From IMG/VR virus record IMGVR_UViG_2563366895_000001, positions 27,011-91,010 of that record: 64,000 nt of DNA. The stretch is one strand, 5' to 3'. This DNA is from a virus (taxonomy: Duplodnaviria > Heunggongvirae > Uroviricota > Caudoviricetes). The translations under genes and the position numbers were made by a program. The notes beneath the pieces are model-generated. The model did no database searches and was not told the DNA's origin. It was given only the letters and a program-made list of their open reading frames with translations. This document shows, piece by piece, positions 4,204 to 27,985 of the stretch (positions are counted from its first letter, which is position 1; every line of letters begins with the position of its first letter).

Positions 4204-4914
4204 ATGACTCAGCAAACAAAGAAATGGATTTTTACTGAGCTGGTAAAAGATCCAAATAATATTGAGCAGCTTCTTTCGTATGCGGTTTATAAAGGTTTTA
4301 AGGACGAAATAGCTCGTAACGCTCGCGCGGCCGGTAAAAAAGAATACGAGATTGAGGCTGAGCTTGCGGCCTACCACGATCAATGCCTCAAGTCACCGAG
4401 GCAGCTTCAAGTATTTAAAAGAAGCGCACAAGAAATTTTAGATGGATACGTTTCTGGCGTCAACAACGAGTTGCAGACAAGGTTAGAAACAATTTTTGAG
4501 CAGCAAGAGAATATTTATCAAAACCAAATCAAAGCCCTCCAGAAAGAGAAAGATGAGGCAAACAAAAATGCTATAAAGCAGCTGGTTAAAGGTGTAGAAA
4601 AATACAGCAAGCAAATAAAGAAACCCGTGGGGTTTTGGGAATGTGCCCAAGTCTATGGGATTGCCATATTAAAATTTCTTTTTTCTGGTGTACCAAAACT
4701 TTTTGCCACAGCCTTCTCAATAGGCCTTTTGTTTACAATATGGGGACTCTTTAACGGTGATGCCGTAACAGGTCTGAGAAAAGGACTTTATAAAATGGTA
4801 GATATAACCGTGCCAGGAGAAAAGGTTAACACTACGCAAAATGATGTTGGCTCAATTAGCCCTAACCAGAAGAGTGTTACGGCAAATAAACAGCCCCACG
4901 ATGGAGGGGCATAA
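4204..4914 (+). CDS. Hypothetical membrane-anchored coiled-coil protein (visibly AT-rich cargo gene)
   Basis: 236-aa ORF; central coiled-coil-like region; C-terminal hydrophobic segments (ILKFLFSGVPKLFATAFSIGLLFTIWGLF); AT-rich compared with flanks. Confidence 0.45.
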   Translation: MTQQTKKWIFTELVKDPNNIEQLLSYAVYKGFKDEIARNARAAGKKEYEIEAELAAYHDQCLKSPRQLQVFKRSAQEILDGYVSGVNNELQTRLETIFEQQENIYQNQIKALQKEKDEANKNAIKQLVKGVEKYSKQIKKPVGFWECAQVYGIAILKFLFSGVPKLFATAFSIGLLFTIWGLFNGDAVTGLRKGLYKMVDITVPGEKVNTTQNDVGSISPNQKSVTANKQPHDGGA

Positions 4915-5290
4915 CCATCAGTGGCGGCTGTAGCTCGGACGGATATAACGCATCGGAGGCGACGTAACGGTTGAGCGGCGCGCGAACGAGCTGGAGCCAT
5001 AATAGCGTTTGGTCGCTGGTGGCGTTGTAGCGCGGCGCCGGATGGTAGTTTTTAATGACGGTCGTATGATGCGTGATGTTGATATTGCTGCTGTGTCCAT
5101 AGCCACCACCGCTCATCAGGTGTCCCATCAGCAAGTCGCTGAAGACCCCGCTGTTATCGTAATAGTGGACCCCTCCCGGCGCGGATGGCTGAGCGACGAT
5201 TACCGGTGCCGGGCCGTCACGGTCACACAAGCTGAGCGCAACCAGGGCAAACAGCACGTCACCAGCAATCAACAGATGTTTCTTTTTCAT
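4877..5290 (-). CDS. Putative lipoprotein (P1 plp-like position)
   Basis: Start taken at internal ATG 5290 (MKKKHLLIAGDVLFALVALSLCD, signal peptide with Cys) preceded by GGGAG; lies after the tRNA region as plp does in P1. Confidence 0.4.
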   Translation of the reverse strand: MKKKHLLIAGDVLFALVALSLCDRDGPAPVIVAQPSAPGGVHYYDNSGVFSDLLMGHLMSGGGYGHSSNINITHHTTVIKNYHPAPRYNATSDQTLLWLQLVRAPLNRYVASDALYPSELQPPLMVMPLHRGAVYLP

Positions 5291-5463
5291 CTCCCGCGTG
5301 CGCTCAGCCGCATTCGCCACAACGGAAAGAGCATCTATGGCGCACATCGCGGGAAAAAGCCCACGGTAGAGAGTCGAACTCTACAAATGCTCTTATCTGT
5401 TGTGCACTCCGTTTCGAGGAATAGATGTCAGAGTCGTACCGGCAGAATCATCACATTGGTATA

Positions 5464-5970
5464 TGGTGATGGTTGATGGAATTGAACCGCCGTAGCTATT
5501 TCTTTATATCCAATAAACCTGCGTGGACTTTTCTGTGGCAATTCGCACAGAGGACAATGTACTTCCTTACTTCTTCCTTAAGTCGCTTTCGAGATCGACT
5601 ACATAGGTTAGAAGGATCGCCTTCTTTGCCGCCAGGGTTATCATGGTGGAGGTCCAGAACTATAGGTTCTTTTTCTCCACAATTTTGGCACCCGATGAAG
5701 CGTTTATAACGAGATAAAAACTGACGGTTTGAACTTGTTTTTCTCGTTCTTGTTAACTTTATAAGCCGGCGCCTTGATTCATTGCTTGCATAACTCAGAG
5801 CATCTCTTTCCTTGGCGCACACCTTGCAAATATTTTGCAGGCCATCGCTCTTTCCTTTGTTTTTATGGAAATCGGAAGCAGGTTTTAGTGCTTTGCATTT
5901 GCTACAAATTTTCATCAGTATCCCACTGCTTACAAGGCAGACGCTCTAACCACTGAGCTACACCATCACT
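5464..5970 (-). tRNA. tRNA-Thr(UGU)-like gene in two pieces: 5' part at 5926..5967, 3' part with encoded CCA at 5464..5497, separated by a 428-bp insert
   Basis: 5' part reads GATGGTG-TA-GCTC-AGTGGTTA-GAGC-G-TCTGC-CTTGTAA-GCAG (D-arm, anticodon arm, anticodon TGT); 3' part reads A-GCTAC-GGCGG-TTCAATT-CCATC-AACCATC-A-CCA; acceptor halves pair 6/7 and the anticodon stem is completed only when the two parts are joined. Confidence 0.5.
5496..5915 (-). CDS. HNH endonuclease (homing-endonuclease-like) occupying the tRNA insert
   Basis: N-terminal Cys cluster (CSKCKALKP...ICKVCAKERD) and C-terminal HNH motif (NCGEKEP...LDLHHDNPGGKEGDPSNL...LCANCHRKVH). Confidence 0.7.
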   Translation of the reverse strand: MKICSKCKALKPASDFHKNKGKSDGLQNICKVCAKERDALSYASNESRRRLIKLTRTRKTSSNRQFLSRYKRFIGCQNCGEKEPIVLDLHHDNPGGKEGDPSNLCSRSRKRLKEEVRKYIVLCANCHRKVHAGLLDIKK

Positions 5971-6635: not shown

Positions 6636-6652
6636 AAATTTATTAGAGCAAT
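6636..6652 (-). promoter_or_regulatory. C1-repressor operator-like site (16/17 to ATTGCTCTAATAAATTT), overlapping the dmt stop codon
   Basis: Plus strand reads AAATTTATTAGAGCAAT, the reverse complement of the P1 C1 operator consensus. Confidence 0.55.
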
Positions 6653-9600
6653 GTAGCCATAACGTCATGAGCAACACCACGAGTGTCTCCCTTACAAGAC
6701 ACAGAACGTCTGGCAAAGAGAGGTTCCACTCTGAAGCCACTGTCCTGATAAAGTTCTCTGATGTTTGGCGCGCCACTGTTAGTAATGAGTACCTTTGCAC
6801 CTCGGCGATGAGCATCCGTCAACAGAGACACCAGGCGTTTTTGCTCTTCAAACTTAAAGTCATGACCGGAATAGTTCGTGAATCCCTCTGTATTTGGAAG
6901 CGGTTCATATGGCGGATCGCAAAAAATGACATCTCCTTCTCCGGCAGCTTCAATCACCGCAGCAAAATCACCACATACAAACTCAGAACGCCCTTCCGCA
7001 CCAAGGAAGACTTCCATCTCCTGCAATGGGAAATACGGAGTTTTATACTTCCCATAACCGACATTGAACTCACCGGCTTGGTTGTAACGCGTCAATCCAT
7101 TAAAACAATGTCGGTTCAGGAACAAAAACGCCGCTGCGAGATGTAAATCATCATAGACTTGTTTGTTAAACGCATTCCGTACTGCCAGGAATCCCTCCTG
7201 GGTGTTGTAGTCCAGGAAGAAACGATGTGCCAGAGTGATAAGTGAATGCGCCTCGCGTTGCAGAGTCTTGTAAAAGTTAATCAGGTCAGCATTCACATCA
7301 TTTAGCAGATTTTCCTGGTATCCGGCATTTATGAAGACAGCTCCGCCACCAACGAAAGGTTCAATCAGGCGCTTCCCTTCTGGCAAATAGCGAAAGATTT
7401 GTTCCAGAACACCAAATTTTCCACCAGCCCATTTGAATATGGACCGTTCGAATTCTGCCGCTGGTTTAACTTTTCGCTCTTTTGTTTCACTTCCTTCTTT
7501 CTGCCGACATACGGCCTTAGTAATCCGATCGCCAATCCAGCACATTACTGGTATTGCCATACTATTGCCGATCGCTTTGTAACGCGGTCCGTCAGCTGCA
7601 AGCATCGCGGCCTCTTCTTCGCTTAAATCTGGATAGTGATTGCGAAGATATGCCAGTTCATCTGAATTAACTGTTTTACGCTTTTCCGTCGGGATCAACG
7701 TATGCCCATCAGGAAAACCTTGCAGCCTTTCACATTCGACAGGGGTAAGACGGCGCATTCTACCGTCGCCGAGCAATACAATTGGTGCTTCATGGTTACA
7801 TGTCAAAGTTGGTGCCGAATTATCGGTTTTTATCTCAGCCCCTCCTTGCCCATGTGCCATGGCAATTATGTTTGTATCATCGCAAGTTCTGATAGCGATG
7901 TTTGAAGTATATCTGGTAGTTTCCTTCCCCTCGCCTCTGCTCGGCGCAATATCCCGGCGCACGCCTTCGAACTCAAAAAGTACCGTTGCGGGATCGAGGT
8001 CTGTTCGAGCACTTGCGACAACAAACACGCGTCGGCGTCGTTGTGCCACTCCGAAGTATTGGGCATCAAGGATTCTCCAGGCCACTTTTCGCTGCGATCC
8101 ATAAATACAACCACACTGCGGCCACTTTGGAGCATGGCAACCGGTTTTGCCATCCCACCGCCAGAACGCGTTACTTTTTCCTGATTCAGGTCGATCACCT
8201 GGTTCAAATGGCGCATCTTCTCCAGCCAATCCGGCAAGGAAACATCCGAAGGCGTTATCTGCCGATGACAAGACTCCTGGGACATTTTCCCAGACGATAA
8301 CGGCTGGTTTGAGAAATGACTCAGCCCGTTTGTCGTCAATTGCATTTGCAAGCTCCACATACTTTAAAGTTAGCGCGCCACGCTCATCATCAAGCCCACC
8401 ACGTAATCCCGCGATACTGAATGCCTGACAGTTATGGACCACCGCACCATTGAGGATATAGGAATGATCACCTTCGACTTCTATGTTGTATACAGTATCT
8501 AGGCCTACCGATTTAAACTCTTTGACTGTTCGTAAAAGCATTCCATGAGCCAATCTTGATTTACGTGACAATTTCTGCGGGCAGATTGTTACCTGATAAT
8601 AATTCCGTTGATTTACCACGCGATCCTCGATCACTTTTTTGGGCTCAACTTCAATAAAGCTGACCGAAGAAACATAACCACAAGTCTGTGACAACCCCGC
8701 AACGCCCCAAGCAAGCGCAGGACTAACACTATTAATTCTAAATCCCGCTTTACCACTTGGTGTCCCATCAGTATCAAGATAGCCTTGTAAAAACACATGA
8801 CGCAATGGATGCGACATCACCCATGCAGGGATACGCTTAGCATGGCTTAACTCGCCAAAATGTTCATTAAGCCAATTGGCATAACACGTATCATTCAAGG
8901 TTACTTTGATGCTCCCTCGGATTTCGCTTGCCACGGAAAATATGTTTTCTGGTATGCGGCAATGAAACTTTCTCAATTTCTGGCAATTTATGCCAAAAAC
9001 AACCGCCTTCTTAGATTTACCTCTCCATCTCCTAATATATCCATCGCCAACATAAGCGCCCGCAAGATACATAGCCTGTTCTTCAGACAAGAACCGAGAA
9101 CAAATATCTGGAGATGCAATATTGAAATTAGTTAGAGCGCACCATTGATATCCCGGCATATCACATGCTGCTCGCCATTCCGGTTCAGACAACAACTCTC
9201 TCTTAAAATATGTGCCATTTTTCCGGGTGTTTTGGGCTTTCCACCGAACAGCCAGGAAGGGATGGTCATTGGTTGTTCTTATACCTAAAGGCTGCCCAAC
9301 GGCATTAAGTAACCCCGTATTAGCTATTTTTGAACCAACTCTTTTTACTTGTTGTAACCGCCCGAGATGACTGACTACGTAATCGCCAGGGCAAACATCT
9401 TCTATTGGTTTATAACCATTTTTACAAAGAACCATATGCCCCGCGGTAAAACATGGTGTTCCCCCGACGAGCACGTCAGGGGATTCGATTTCCCCAGCCA
9501 AGACTTTTTTGGCAAGTTTTGTCATGTCGCCAAGGTTGGCGACATGGGGCCAGCGGAGCGCAAGAACGGCCGATGGAAAAGGCTCGATTTCAGCAAACCA

Positions 9601-9684
9601 CGCCGGACGCATACCCAACGGTTCCCAGGCAATACTCGCGGCTTCAATTCCACTGCAAACAGATCCATAGCACAGCTCTTTCAC
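6643..9684 (-). CDS. dmt: Bifunctional DNA methyltransferase: N-terminal C5-cytosine MTase domain (interrupted by an intein) fused to a C-terminal Dam-like N6-adenine MTase domain
   Basis: C5-MTase motifs [12 protein letters not shown] (PCQ), VWENVPG (ENV), [17 protein letters not shown]; Dam-like motifs PFVGGGAVF and CDPPYEP in the C-terminal third; stop overlaps nothing but start overlaps hrdC stop (9681..9684). Confidence 0.85.
8431..9453 (-). other. Intein (341 aa) with LAGLIDADG homing-endonuclease domain, inserted at the catalytic Cys of the C5-MTase PCQ motif
   Basis: Extein GGTP | intein CFTAGHMVL...([13 protein letters not shown] ... [11 protein letters not shown]) ...ILNGAVVHN | extein CQAFSIAG; codons checked on the minus strand (TGT at 9453..9451, AAC at 8433..8431, TGT-CAG following). 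Confidence 0.8.
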
Positions 9685-10586
9685 TGCTTAGCCTCTCCGC
9701 CAAGGGCATTTACCAGAGCATCAACCAGGCACGAAATTTCACTGGTCAACAGGAAGAAATCTGCGTCCAGTCGCTGCGCTACATCTTCACTATCAATATC
9801 AGAGTTCTGCTCAAGCAATTCATCCGCAAATTTGACGCTGGTAAGGCTGAAGTTATGGTCCAGTGTAAATTTAATGCGGTTCTGCCAGTCGAGTGCCAAC
9901 TTAGTGACGAGCTTGCCAGCTTCCAGGTGTGTGGAAATTTCATCGCTTCCCAGATCCTGCTTTTTCACTCGGGCAATACCGCCATCCTCAAGCACTGCCT
10001 TAAGTTCTGCCGCATCCCCCATTTGAAATCCCTGTGGAGCACTACCATCACGTACCCAGTCGGTCAGCGTTAATTCAATGGGATTTTCAACACTCAGGGG
10101 AACAACAGGAAGAGAACCCAGAGACTTACGCATAAGCGCGAGCATATCCTCTGCCTGCCGCGCGCTGGCATTGATATAGATACGTTTAGTTGAACCGTCG
10201 TAGATCGCCTGGATAACAGAAAACTTTGAAAAAGCCCGTGGCAGAAGAGAATGCAGAACTTCGTCTTTCAGGGAGTCCTTCTCTGTTTTCTTCAGTTTAC
10301 GCGCTTGTTCTTGCTCAAGTTTTTCAATTTTTTCTTGAATAGCTCGCTGGATAACCGGCGGGGGAAGAATTTTTGTTTCGCGCTTTGCTTCAACAAGGAT
10401 AAAACCATTTCCATGCATAGCGATAACTTCGGAATTATCGCCAAATGGAGATACAAAACCGAACTTGGCCATATCCTGACTACCGCATGGCGTGAAAAGG
10501 ATCATTTTCTTTTTATCTTCTAAGTCGGTCAGATCCGCCTCACGAGAAAGTTTATAAATAGTAATGTTTTTCCAGTGCTTAAACAT
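9681..10586 (-). CDS. hrdC: RdgC-like recombination-associated protein (P1 hrdC position)
   Basis: Start at internal ATG 10586; strong resemblance to E. coli RdgC over the whole length ([16 protein letters not shown]..., [54 protein letters not shown], ending GGEAKQ). Confidence 0.85.
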
Positions 10587-23943: not shown

Positions 23944-24099
23944 TTACCTTTCAGATTCGTAGGCTGTGAAGACAGTGACCTCCGTCTGGCCGGTTCGGAT
24001 TCGTACCTCGCAGAGGTCTTTCCTCGTTACCAGTGCCGTCACAATGACGGTTAAACAGATGACGATCAGAGCGATTAACATCGCTTTTTGCTGCTTCAT
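23944..24099 (-). CDS. hok: Hok/Gef-family type I toxin (51 aa); not in the supplied ORF track
   Basis: Hand translation MKQQKAMLIALIVICLTVIVTALVTRKDLCEVRIRTGQTEVTVFTAYESER, close to HokC/Gef. Confidence 0.7.
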   Translation of the reverse strand: MKQQKAMLIALIVICLTVIVTALVTRKDLCEVRIRTGQTEVTVFTAYESER

Positions 24100-24157
24100 A
24101 GCCTGCTTCTCCTTGACCTTTTGGTCGGTAAGAGGCTAATCTACGTATGCTAAGCAT
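23951..24157 (-). CDS. mok: Possible mok-like overlapping reading frame
   Basis: 68-aa ORF in another frame spanning the hok ORF, as mok does in hok/sok loci. Confidence 0.35.
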   Translation of the reverse strand: MLSIRRLASYRPKGQGEAGYEAAKSDVNRSDRHLFNRHCDGTGNEERPLRGTNPNRPDGGHCLHSLRI

Positions 24158-24280
24158 AGATATGGCCTCAGATTAATGTTAAGCGTCTTGCAGGACGCGT
24201 AATGTTATCTGGGGCTTTCTTCTATCTGCTTTTCGGGTAATGCCTGAAGCAGATAGCCTCAAGCACCCGCAACGATTGTA

Positions 24281-26415: not shown

Positions 26416-27453
26416 TTAACCTATTGCTACTGGTTTTAACAAACCAGCATCAAGTAGCTTGCGAGTTAACCACTGCTGGCCTTTACCCGTTAATTGGGGC
26501 GTCAGCCGTATCTGGTAGCCATTTTCATCATCCAGCACCACTTCTTTCACCGTGAAATACCCGGCGTTAATGTACTGCTGGCGCGGTACGTTTTTGCGCG
26601 CACCAAAAGCCATGAGAATGCCGTTCTGGCGCAACCATGAGAAAAGGGCGTTTTGCTTAAGTCCAACGACCTTTGCAAAGTTCCCGATCAGGATTGCATT
26701 AGCCGCTGATACCCGGTCGGCAAAATCGACTTTAGGGGCTGCGGCCACCAGCTGTTGTTCCAACTGCATTTTCTGTTCTGCCAACTCGGCAGCCAGGCGT
26801 AGAGCGTCTGGTAATGTTTGGGGGATCGATGGCGCAGGGGAGTTTGCCTGCTGCAATTCTTCCAGTTTGTCGATCAGCGAACGGCGGACTGCTTTTGACT
26901 CGCGCGCGGCGACTCGCAGGGCTTGTTTGAAAGTCATGGTTATGACAAGCATTGATGTTTTGTTCATTTTTTCCACTACACTTTTTGTGTAGTGCTCACC
27001 ATCAAGCTCATCGAGTATTTTTTCGATGAATTTGTTGTTCCGAACCTCTGGTTCCCTACATAACTTACGCGCTTCATTGACCATCTTTAACAGTGTCAGG
27101 CTGTCGATTGTGTCTCCGGTGTTGGGGATGATATTCACGGCTGGTGCTGGCGTAGCTGAAGCAACAGGTGCTGGTTTTTCAACATTCAAATTATTACCGG
27201 TCATTCTGCGCGCCTCCTTTCTCATTTCTGCTGCCACTGTTGCGTAACGTAGACGTCCTTGTTCAATCAAATAATCCCTGATCTCGGCTATCAGTAGCCT
27301 GTTGATCACAGCCTTATCTGTTCGGGTATAAAAACGTCTGGTTATCATGAAATAGTTGGCAATTGCGCCGGGGATCTCCCGTGTCGGCATACAGGTTGTA
27401 TGCAAAGCGATCGCTTTGGCTATTTCATTACGGGTGACGAGAGGTTTTTTCAT
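26416..27453 (-). CDS. ant: Antirepressor Ant-like protein
   Basis: 345 aa; phage antirepressor-type C-terminal domain; preceded by icd-like ORF with ATGA-type overlap. Confidence 0.65.
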   Translation of the reverse strand: MKKPLVTRNEIAKAIALHTTCMPTREIPGAIANYFMITRRFYTRTDKAVINRLLIAEIRDYLIEQGRLRYATVAAEMRKEARRMTGNNLNVEKPAPVASATPAPAVNIIPNTGDTIDSLTLLKMVNEARKLCREPEVRNNKFIEKILDELDGEHYTKSVVEKMNKTSMLVITMTFKQALRVAARESKAVRRSLIDKLEELQQANSPAPSIPQTLPDALRLAAELAEQKMQLEQQLVAAAPKVDFADRVSAANAILIGNFAKVVGLKQNALFSWLRQNGILMAFGARKNVPRQQYINAGYFTVKEVVLDDENGYQIRLTPQLTGKGQQWLTRKLLDAGLLKPVAIG

Positions 27454-27699: not shown

Positions 27700-27900
27700 A
27701 CCTGCTACCCGCTGCTAAACAGGTGGCAGGACGTGACGGGGTTAGCAGACTGGCGATTGTGAAACCAGCAGGCCGAAGCCTCCCCATCCCGCCCCACCAT
27801 AATTTGGGCGTAACGCGGTTTTACGGACACAAAAATACCGCAATATCGGATATCTGCGGCTGTCCGCACAATCATTCAGGCTGCTAAACCCGGTCGCAGA
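27700..27900 (-). ncRNA. c4: Region expected to encode the c4-type antisense RNA (not resolved at nucleotide level)
   Basis: By synteny only: between the operator at 27986..28002 and icd. Confidence 0.25.
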
Positions 27901-27985
27901 ATTTGCTACGACGGCGAAACTATAAGCCTGAACGATTAAAAGGTCAATATGATGCGAAAAGATAGCATTCGCGACTTAAAAATAC

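Follow-up and report, generated by a model that had tools for sequence, protein, structure and literature searches.

The methyltransferase gene dmt lies on the minus strand of a 64,000-nucleotide stretch of a caudoviricete virus (IMG/VR record IMGVR_UViG_2563366895_000001, positions 27,011 to 91,010; hereafter the window, within which all coordinates are given), and its coding region contains a large in-frame insert. The open reading frame (ORF; 6643..9684), which starts with GTG and has no internal stop, encodes a predicted precursor of 1013 amino acids and 112.7 kDa, with all of its parts on the minus strand. An N-extein (9454..9684, aa 1-77) extends from C5-methyltransferase motif I up to the GGTP of motif IV and leaves proline as the -1 residue; the insert follows (8431..9453, 1023 nt), encoding 341 amino acids (residues 78-418 of the ORF) with a predicted mass of 38.3 kDa; and the C-extein (6643..8430) holds the remainder of the C5-methyltransferase (motifs IV-X), a Dam domain (PF02086, 6655..7443) and the stop codon. 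Between motifs VIII and IX of the C5 domain is a variable target recognition domain (TRD, about 7750..7944). In translation, the gene reads ...DVLVGGTP, then CFTAGHM...NGAVVHN, then CQAFSIAG..., meaning that the insert begins with Cys, ends with His-Asn, and is followed by a second Cys (8428..8430; Cys419 in the precursor, Cys78 after splicing) predicted to be both the splicing nucleophile and the catalytic Cys of the PCQ motif. An earlier reading of this DNA from its letters alone (the sequence-only reading) had called these 341 codons an intein with a LAGLIDADG endonuclease, and its boundaries for the insert are exact to the base. The GC content of the insert is 0.43 versus 0.48-0.55 in the exteins, which suggests a foreign origin.

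Pfam searches of the whole product recovered the C-5 cytosine methylase family (PF00145) in four pieces and an intact D12/Dam family match (PF02086) at residues 752-985; NCBIfam agreed, with dcm and dam matches and a match to TIGR00571. At the nucleotide level, dmt shares 98.5% identity with its counterparts in OP279344 ("Escherichia phage P1") and in many P1-type plasmids, while the extein DNA is 96.6-96.8% identical to P7 dam and the P1 reference dmt, and up to 98.5% identical across P1, P7 and RCS47. The gene order uhr-hrdC-dmt, with dmt adjoining hrdC/rdgC, is common to the window and its P1-family relatives, and P1-type plasmids match the window across its first 25 kb. Given these domains, DNA identities, gene order and 25-kb match, we assign the window to a Punavirus-type phage-plasmid and the gene to Dmt, the predicted bifunctional methyltransferase of the P1 family with an N-terminal C5-methyltransferase and a C-terminal Dam.

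Intein-free alleles of the same gene define the empty site. When five proteins of the family were aligned, P7 Dam (672 aa), which is an exact intein-free allele, and P1 Dmt (754 aa) were gapless across GGTP-CQAF, the point at which the 341 inserted residues appear in the proteins of the window, OP279344 and RCS47; the flanking P and CQ are therefore contiguous in intein-free homologues, in keeping with the sequence-only reading. Two variants of the empty site occur, GTCGGGGGTACGCCT joined to TGTCAGGCATTCAG and GTCGGGGGAACACCT joined to TGTCAGGCATTCAG. Removing the insert in silico raised the PF00145 score from 102 bits in four pieces to 122.8 bits, with one matching stretch crossing the junction, and the spliced sequence aligned to M.HhaI over DILCAGFPCQAFSISG and through PCQ, the M.HhaI sequence there being GFPCQAFSISG. 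Both the proposed split between the Pro and Cys of motif IV and the restoration of an uninterrupted methyltransferase upon excision were borne out by these comparisons. The Cys of the motif IV PCQ is the catalytic nucleophile of C5-methyltransferases, and the +1 residue of the insert is thus identified with the catalytic cysteine. Other C5 motifs are likewise intact after excision (Pro-Cys in motif IV, ENV in motif VI, QRR in motif VIII, and motifs IX and X), making the excised Dmt a contiguous predicted C5-methyltransferase.

Within the insert, the N-terminal part of a Hint domain (aa 1-118, approximate boundary; 9100..9453) corresponds to a beta-strand region in the structural model described below, matches Hint_2 over aa 1-49, and contains the block B TxxH motif as T61-N-D-H64 (9262..9273). 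The LAGLIDADG endonuclease domain (approximately aa 119-292; 8578..9099) contains both of the motifs quoted in the sequence-only reading, the first at 9034..9072 with catalytic D137 followed by GYI, and the second at 8761..8793 with catalytic D229 in FLQGYLDTD229GT; the codon for K206 lies between them at 8836..8838. The C-terminal part of the Hint domain (aa 293-341; 8431..8577) comprises blocks F/G, matches both TIGR01443 and the C-terminus of the Spl DnaX mini-intein, and terminates in His340-Asn341 (8431..8436). Profile scores for the insert were above cut-off for Pfam LAGLIDADG_3 (PF14528, E 1.7e-8) and for NCBIfam intein_Cterm (TIGR01443; 28.9 bits for the whole Dmt and 25.9 bits for the insert alone, with a cut-off of 15.6), and at cut-off for Pfam Hint_2 (E 2.3e-6). 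An alignment with 12 homologues showed conservation of C1, T61, H64, G132/G138, K206, G224/G230, N341 and the +1 Cys, with D137 and D229 nearly invariant.

Searching the PDB by sequence gave weak matches, to the Spl DnaX mini-intein (E 1.4e-3) and to PI-PkoII (E 0.027), and a structure-based search was therefore needed. The AlphaFold2 model built from the 12-homologue alignment (pLDDT 93, pTM 0.90) shows alternating helices and strands in residues 124-292, the alpha/beta fold of LAGLIDADG proteins. Foldseek comparison of the model with the PDB placed PI-SceI first (E about 5e-17), accompanied by the TliVMA and PhoVMA inteins, PI-PfuI and PI-PkoII, with E-values of 1e-10 to 5e-17 for PI-SceI, TliVMA and PI-PfuI; the inner domain matched I-DmoI, I-SceI and I-AniI. 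The best structural matches (PI-SceI from yeast VMA1, PI-PfuI, PI-PkoII and TliVMA) share with the dmt intein the Hint domain with a nested two-motif LAGLIDADG endonuclease and the same Cys1 ... His-Asn / Cys+1 splicing scheme, but they differ from it in sequence (11-16% identity), in length (360-540 residues compared to 341), in host protein and in target site. TM-scores of 0.52-0.63 suggest that the extra DNA-recognition regions of PI-SceI are reduced in the modeled dmt intein. By profiles, residues and model, the insert is a class 1 intein of Hint fold with a nested, monomeric, two-motif LAGLIDADG homing endonuclease, which agrees with the intein and LAGLIDADG endonuclease named in the sequence-only reading, with splicing blocks and both catalytic Asp residues intact in a PI-SceI-type fold; from these features we infer that it splices and cleaves DNA.

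To place the intein among its relatives, 1.84 billion representative proteins were scanned using HMMER, giving 4,453 intein matches at E<=1e-3 and 192 at E<=1e-30, and the sequence context was read for the best 148. Among these, 138 were full-length, and 125 of the 138 sat at xP-C...N-C[Q/T]xxS (hyphens here and below mark the intein junctions), which is motif IV of C5-methyltransferases; the -1 residue was Pro in 124 of the 125 and the +1 residue was Cys in all of them. Across 126 aligned relatives, C1, T61, H64 and N341 were invariant and H340 was present in 112, while the endonuclease residues were conserved in 119 (D137, 95%), 124 (D229, 98%) and 124 (K206). Four phages, Mannheimia phage vB_MhS_587AP2, Propionibacterium phage B22 (gp50), Escherichia jumbo phage A4 and Lactobacillus phage Nyseid, have a homologue at the same Pro-Cys site, and together with more than 120 metagenomic clusters they share the insertion point xP-C...HN-CQxxS and the architecture of the dmt intein. 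Members are 27-57% identical to the window intein, which by sequence belongs to this family, and among sequences other than the Dmt alleles of P1-type elements the closest shares 57% identity. None of the family records examined is annotated as an intein; the names in use are methyltransferase, hypothetical protein and, for fragments, "Hint domain-containing" or "LAGLIDADG family homing endonuclease".

Individual relatives show some further variation. The intein of Mannheimia phage vB_MhS_587AP2 (KP137435) is 48% identical at the same Pro-Cys site. Its C-extein loses the reading frame just past CQ, and what remains of the methylase has a gene annotation of its own; either the host gene has decayed or the frameshift is an error of sequencing. 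Mycobacterium phage Pacc40 gp60 carries a homologous intein in an N4/N6 methylase at another site (...QMHV-C...KN-CPLQ), and a Parvibaculum indicum protein (P0022), for which the precomputed Pfam list has only Hint_2 and Intein_splicing, has one in the context FHPP-C...HN-CTRLCNSG. The intein lineage has evidently changed its host site more than once. In several large representative proteins (1,580-1,960 aa; P0133, P0164, P0085 and P0141), between 5 and 9 distinct stretches match the intein, a sign that one protein may contain multiple related inteins or their remnants.

Among P1-type elements, the distribution of the intein is patchy. Of the plasmids in PLSDB, 497-498 have dmt; the junction region is uninterrupted in 362, and the intein is present in 126-133 (about a quarter), 128 of them at an identity of at least 99%. 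In complete E. coli genomes, it was found in 152 out of 5,426, with every copy full length and at least 99% identical and with 148 of 153 located on plasmids; truncated or mini-intein copies numbered zero among the 153 E. coli records. Junction matches on 98 IMG/VR contigs divided into 21 with the intein junction and 32 and 45 with the two empty-site variants. No IMG/VR contig had an empty site that keeps the intein-linked CCA codon, and there is accordingly no evidence of precise intein deletion. Alleles with the intein and alleles without it each occur with a short and with a long TRD, so that all four pairings exist.

We compared nine intein-bearing alleles, aligned using MAFFT, to assess diversity along the gene. 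Nucleotide diversity (pi) was 0.0077 in the intein, compared to 0.048 in the N-extein, 0.020 in motifs IV-VIII, 0.066 in the C-terminal part of the C5 domain and 0.039 in Dam, making the intein 3-8 times less diverse than the non-TRD segments of its host gene. The residues C1, T61, H64, H340, N341, the +1 Cys, D137, D229 and K206 are intact in all nine alleles, and eight of the nine keep the full reading frame. The ninth, NZ_CP027443.1, is frameshifted by one additional A in an N-extein A-run (ATGAAAAAAACTT vs ATGACAAAACTT), as a result of which PGAP places the start of the coding sequence inside the intein; either a pseudogene or an error in sequencing the homopolymer could explain this. The TRD itself behaves like a cassette open to exchange, with a pi of 0.23 and with intein-free dmt genes of P1-type elements occurring in lengths of 2019, 2265, 2424 and 2589 bp, which suggests that the family has several 5-methylcytosine (m5C) specificities. 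The dmt of the P1 reference (P1 mod749::IS5 c1.100, AF234172) encodes VWGTPCQ for VGGTPCQ, a G74W change three residues before the catalytic Cys that is absent from the other alleles examined and might impair the C5 activity of that strain.

Flanking markers were scored in 82 IMG/VR alleles, of which 14 carry the intein and 68 lack it. Linkage to the intein is perfect at position -22 and also at -1, a position that is part of the search patterns, and the intein-type base at -48, -104 and -118 occurs in 79% of the alleles with the intein and 0% of those without. The association is gone beyond -129 on the N side, giving a linked tract from -1 to -118 in which four of the five differences are synonymous, with the change at -104 replacing His43 by Leu. 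Patchiness, mixed dmt backgrounds, low diversity and a linked flank are typical of a horizontally moving intein with a co-converted flank, for which they would form the classic signature, and the population data fit homing into intein-free alleles of related phage-plasmids, if only indirectly.

Every point of the sequence-only reading that could be checked holds. We consider it very probable that a canonical class 1 intein, equipped with a LAGLIDADG homing endonuclease and able both to splice and to home, lies between the Pro and the catalytic Cys of Dmt motif IV. The mechanism that we propose is built on established knowledge of class 1 inteins and LAGLIDADG enzymes. The gene would be translated as the 112.7-kDa precursor, in which the Hint domain would carry out an N-S acyl shift at Cys1, transfer of the N-extein to the +1 Cys, cyclization of Asn341, and rearrangement of the ester to a peptide bond. 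The expected products are a 74.4-kDa Dmt with an intact GGTPCQAFS and a free endonuclease of 38.3 kDa, close to the sizes of about 75 and 38 kDa given by the sequence-only reading. That reading also made methylase activity dependent on splicing, which holds for the predicted C5 activity but might not extend to the Dam domain: this domain, about 330 residues downstream, is contained entirely in the C-extein and might be functional before splicing. If co-infection, or superinfection of a lysogen, brings an intein-free dmt allele into the same cell, cleavage by the endonuclease is expected at the uninterrupted site that encodes GGTP-CQAF, and repair from the intein-bearing copy would carry in the intein with a short flanking stretch.

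Part of the evidence weighs against this interpretation, and some of it concerns homing. On the C side, the intein-bearing haplotype is common to many empty alleles (a smaller GenBank sample agrees), those of "type B"; the nine P1-type inteins differ by 13 non-synonymous and 13 synonymous changes, and constraint is therefore not strong on this short timescale; and linkage that decays with distance, together with mixed backgrounds, could also be obtained from one ancient insertion followed by ordinary homologous recombination, a history that would look similar and the reason why active homing is counted here as inferred. These same observations would suit an intein that splices while its endonuclease no longer homes; its spread would then be due entirely to P1-type plasmids expanding clonally and to general homologous recombination among alleles of dmt. 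We regard this as the strongest of the alternatives, though unlikely: D137, D229 and K206 have been retained both in all nine P1-type alleles examined and at 95-98% across the 126 diverged relatives, no truncated or mini-intein copy turned up in the E. coli records, and the intein, besides its low diversity, sits on at least two TRD backgrounds.

Other points concern splicing itself. Pro at -1 blocks or slows the first splicing step in some engineered inteins and is unfavorable in some inteins generally, yet its near-universal occurrence in the motif IV family argues that these inteins are adapted to it. The GenBank records of P1 and P7 mark the C5 activity of Dmt only as "perhaps", and the requirement known for P1 is for Dam methylation (PMC12707154; PMC11437467). 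A dead, non-splicing intein would permanently disrupt the C5 domain, with the gene kept for the C-terminal Dam that P1 needs for packaging; the dependence of P1 on GATC methylation would accommodate this, the G74W substitution in the reference strain hints that C5 activity may be dispensable, and the frameshifts in the N-extein of one intein-bearing allele and in the C-extein of the Mannheimia phage copy point the same way. We find it quite improbable nonetheless, as the splicing residues are intact in the window and every P1-type allele examined and, H340 excepted, are conserved in 100% of the 126 relatives that share the -1 Pro, a degree of conservation expected only if splicing is under selection; the C5 motifs of both exteins are also all intact, and the single frameshift leaves the frame complete in the other eight alleles.

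The remaining points concern the profiles: TIGR01443 scored above its cut-off, Hint_2 just reached its own, and Pfam Intein_splicing remained below threshold (22 bits vs 35.8) and was not used as evidence. Beyond this sub-threshold score and the bare fact of insertion, nothing favors an element of another kind, such as a domain fusion, a group I or II intron, or an insertion sequence, and the idea is barely credible with a Hint plus LAGLIDADG fold and canonical boundary residues, the last two candidates being excluded by a frame that continues through both junctions and by the lack of any Rfam family at threshold in the region.

A variation on the preferred reading, in which a splicing and homing intein also acts as a post-translational gate, appears doubtful to us. 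Of the two methyltransferases on the Dmt polypeptide, the intein splits the C5 one alone. Dam (GATC) methylation would then come from the unspliced precursor, whereas m5C methylation and free endonuclease would arise under conditions that allow splicing and not otherwise. Such gating might be controlled by the redox state, given that the intein contains 11 cysteines and that three of these lie no more than 21 residues from the N-junction.

Several other features of the window were noted. Three plus-strand ORFs antisense to the intein region (8860..9135, 9367..10026 and 9453..10073) are without any support and were taken as shadows of the long minus-strand gene. Downstream of dmt, P1, P7 and RCS47 have tRNA-Asn and tRNA-Thr genes at the place where the window has a different segment (context 4900..5942); homology to these three phages resumes at 5942, inside tRNA-Asn, and ARAGORN found no tRNA genes in the whole window. 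This segment includes a Cys-rich 139-aa ORF (5496..5915, minus strand) ending in ...LDLHHDNP...LCANCHRKVH, which appears HNH-nuclease-like by eye and had no Pfam match below E 0.02. With the homology break inside tRNA-Asn and no tRNA in the window, the tRNA cluster seems to have been replaced by a segment with a possible free-standing homing endonuclease. Elsewhere, Rfam matches on the minus strand to the sok antitoxin RNA (24094..24268), the C4 antisense RNA (27719..27804) and its a1/b1 target (27873..27925) are probably ordinary P1-type plasmid and immunity features that confirm the kind of replicon, the C4 RNA belonging to P1 immI.

Inteins in phage DNA methylases are not new as such. Actinophages have the DNMT-1/2 inteins of N6_N4-type methylases (Kelley et al. 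2016, PMC5050341) and the Dorothy_75 intein family (Gosselin et al. 2023, PMC9957025), and N-6/N-4 and C-5 methylases are both among the intein hosts reported previously (bioRxiv 10.1101/2025.01.02.630785). Like the dmt intein, the actinophage methylase inteins are class 1 with a LAGLIDADG endonuclease, occupy a conserved site of an orphan phage DNA methylase, and are patchily distributed, with an intein phylogeny unlike that of the host gene; one known member, the Pacc40 gp60 intein, is a detectable homologue at 27% identity. In contrast, the best-described actinophage cases are in N6/N4 methylases at another insertion site, while the dmt intein occupies the catalytic PC dipeptide of a C5 domain that is joined to Dam, and its host is an enterobacterial phage-plasmid. 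LAGLIDADG inteins in phage DNA methylases, C-5 included, have thus been published already, and the case of P1 Dmt seems to be undescribed, as literature searches found no report of an intein in this protein. E. coli is, to our knowledge, usually regarded as a host free of inteins, a view for which the same searches found no citable paper.

The finding bears on annotation, since database names do not flag the intein: full-length copies are named "Dam family ... methyltransferase" and fragments "Hint domain-containing protein" or "LAGLIDADG family homing endonuclease". OP279344 is the laboratory-propagated P1 stock used in Argonaute studies, and the element is therefore present in laboratory material. 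The biology is what would be expected of an intein, useful rather than surprising; yet P1 is a classic model phage whose relatives are common phage-plasmids in E. coli and Salmonella, and a complete, apparently functional intein in its methyltransferase would offer a tractable system in which to measure intein homing and co-conversion in phage crosses. The same system may serve for asking if an intein endonuclease favors one phage-plasmid over incompatible relatives, and if Dmt, whose C5 activity has long been uncertain, does have this activity and needs splicing for it. Were the doubtful gating of splicing true, the intein would provide these elements with a conditional m5C switch between plasmid and lytic life, along with an endonuclease able to damage intein-free competitors.

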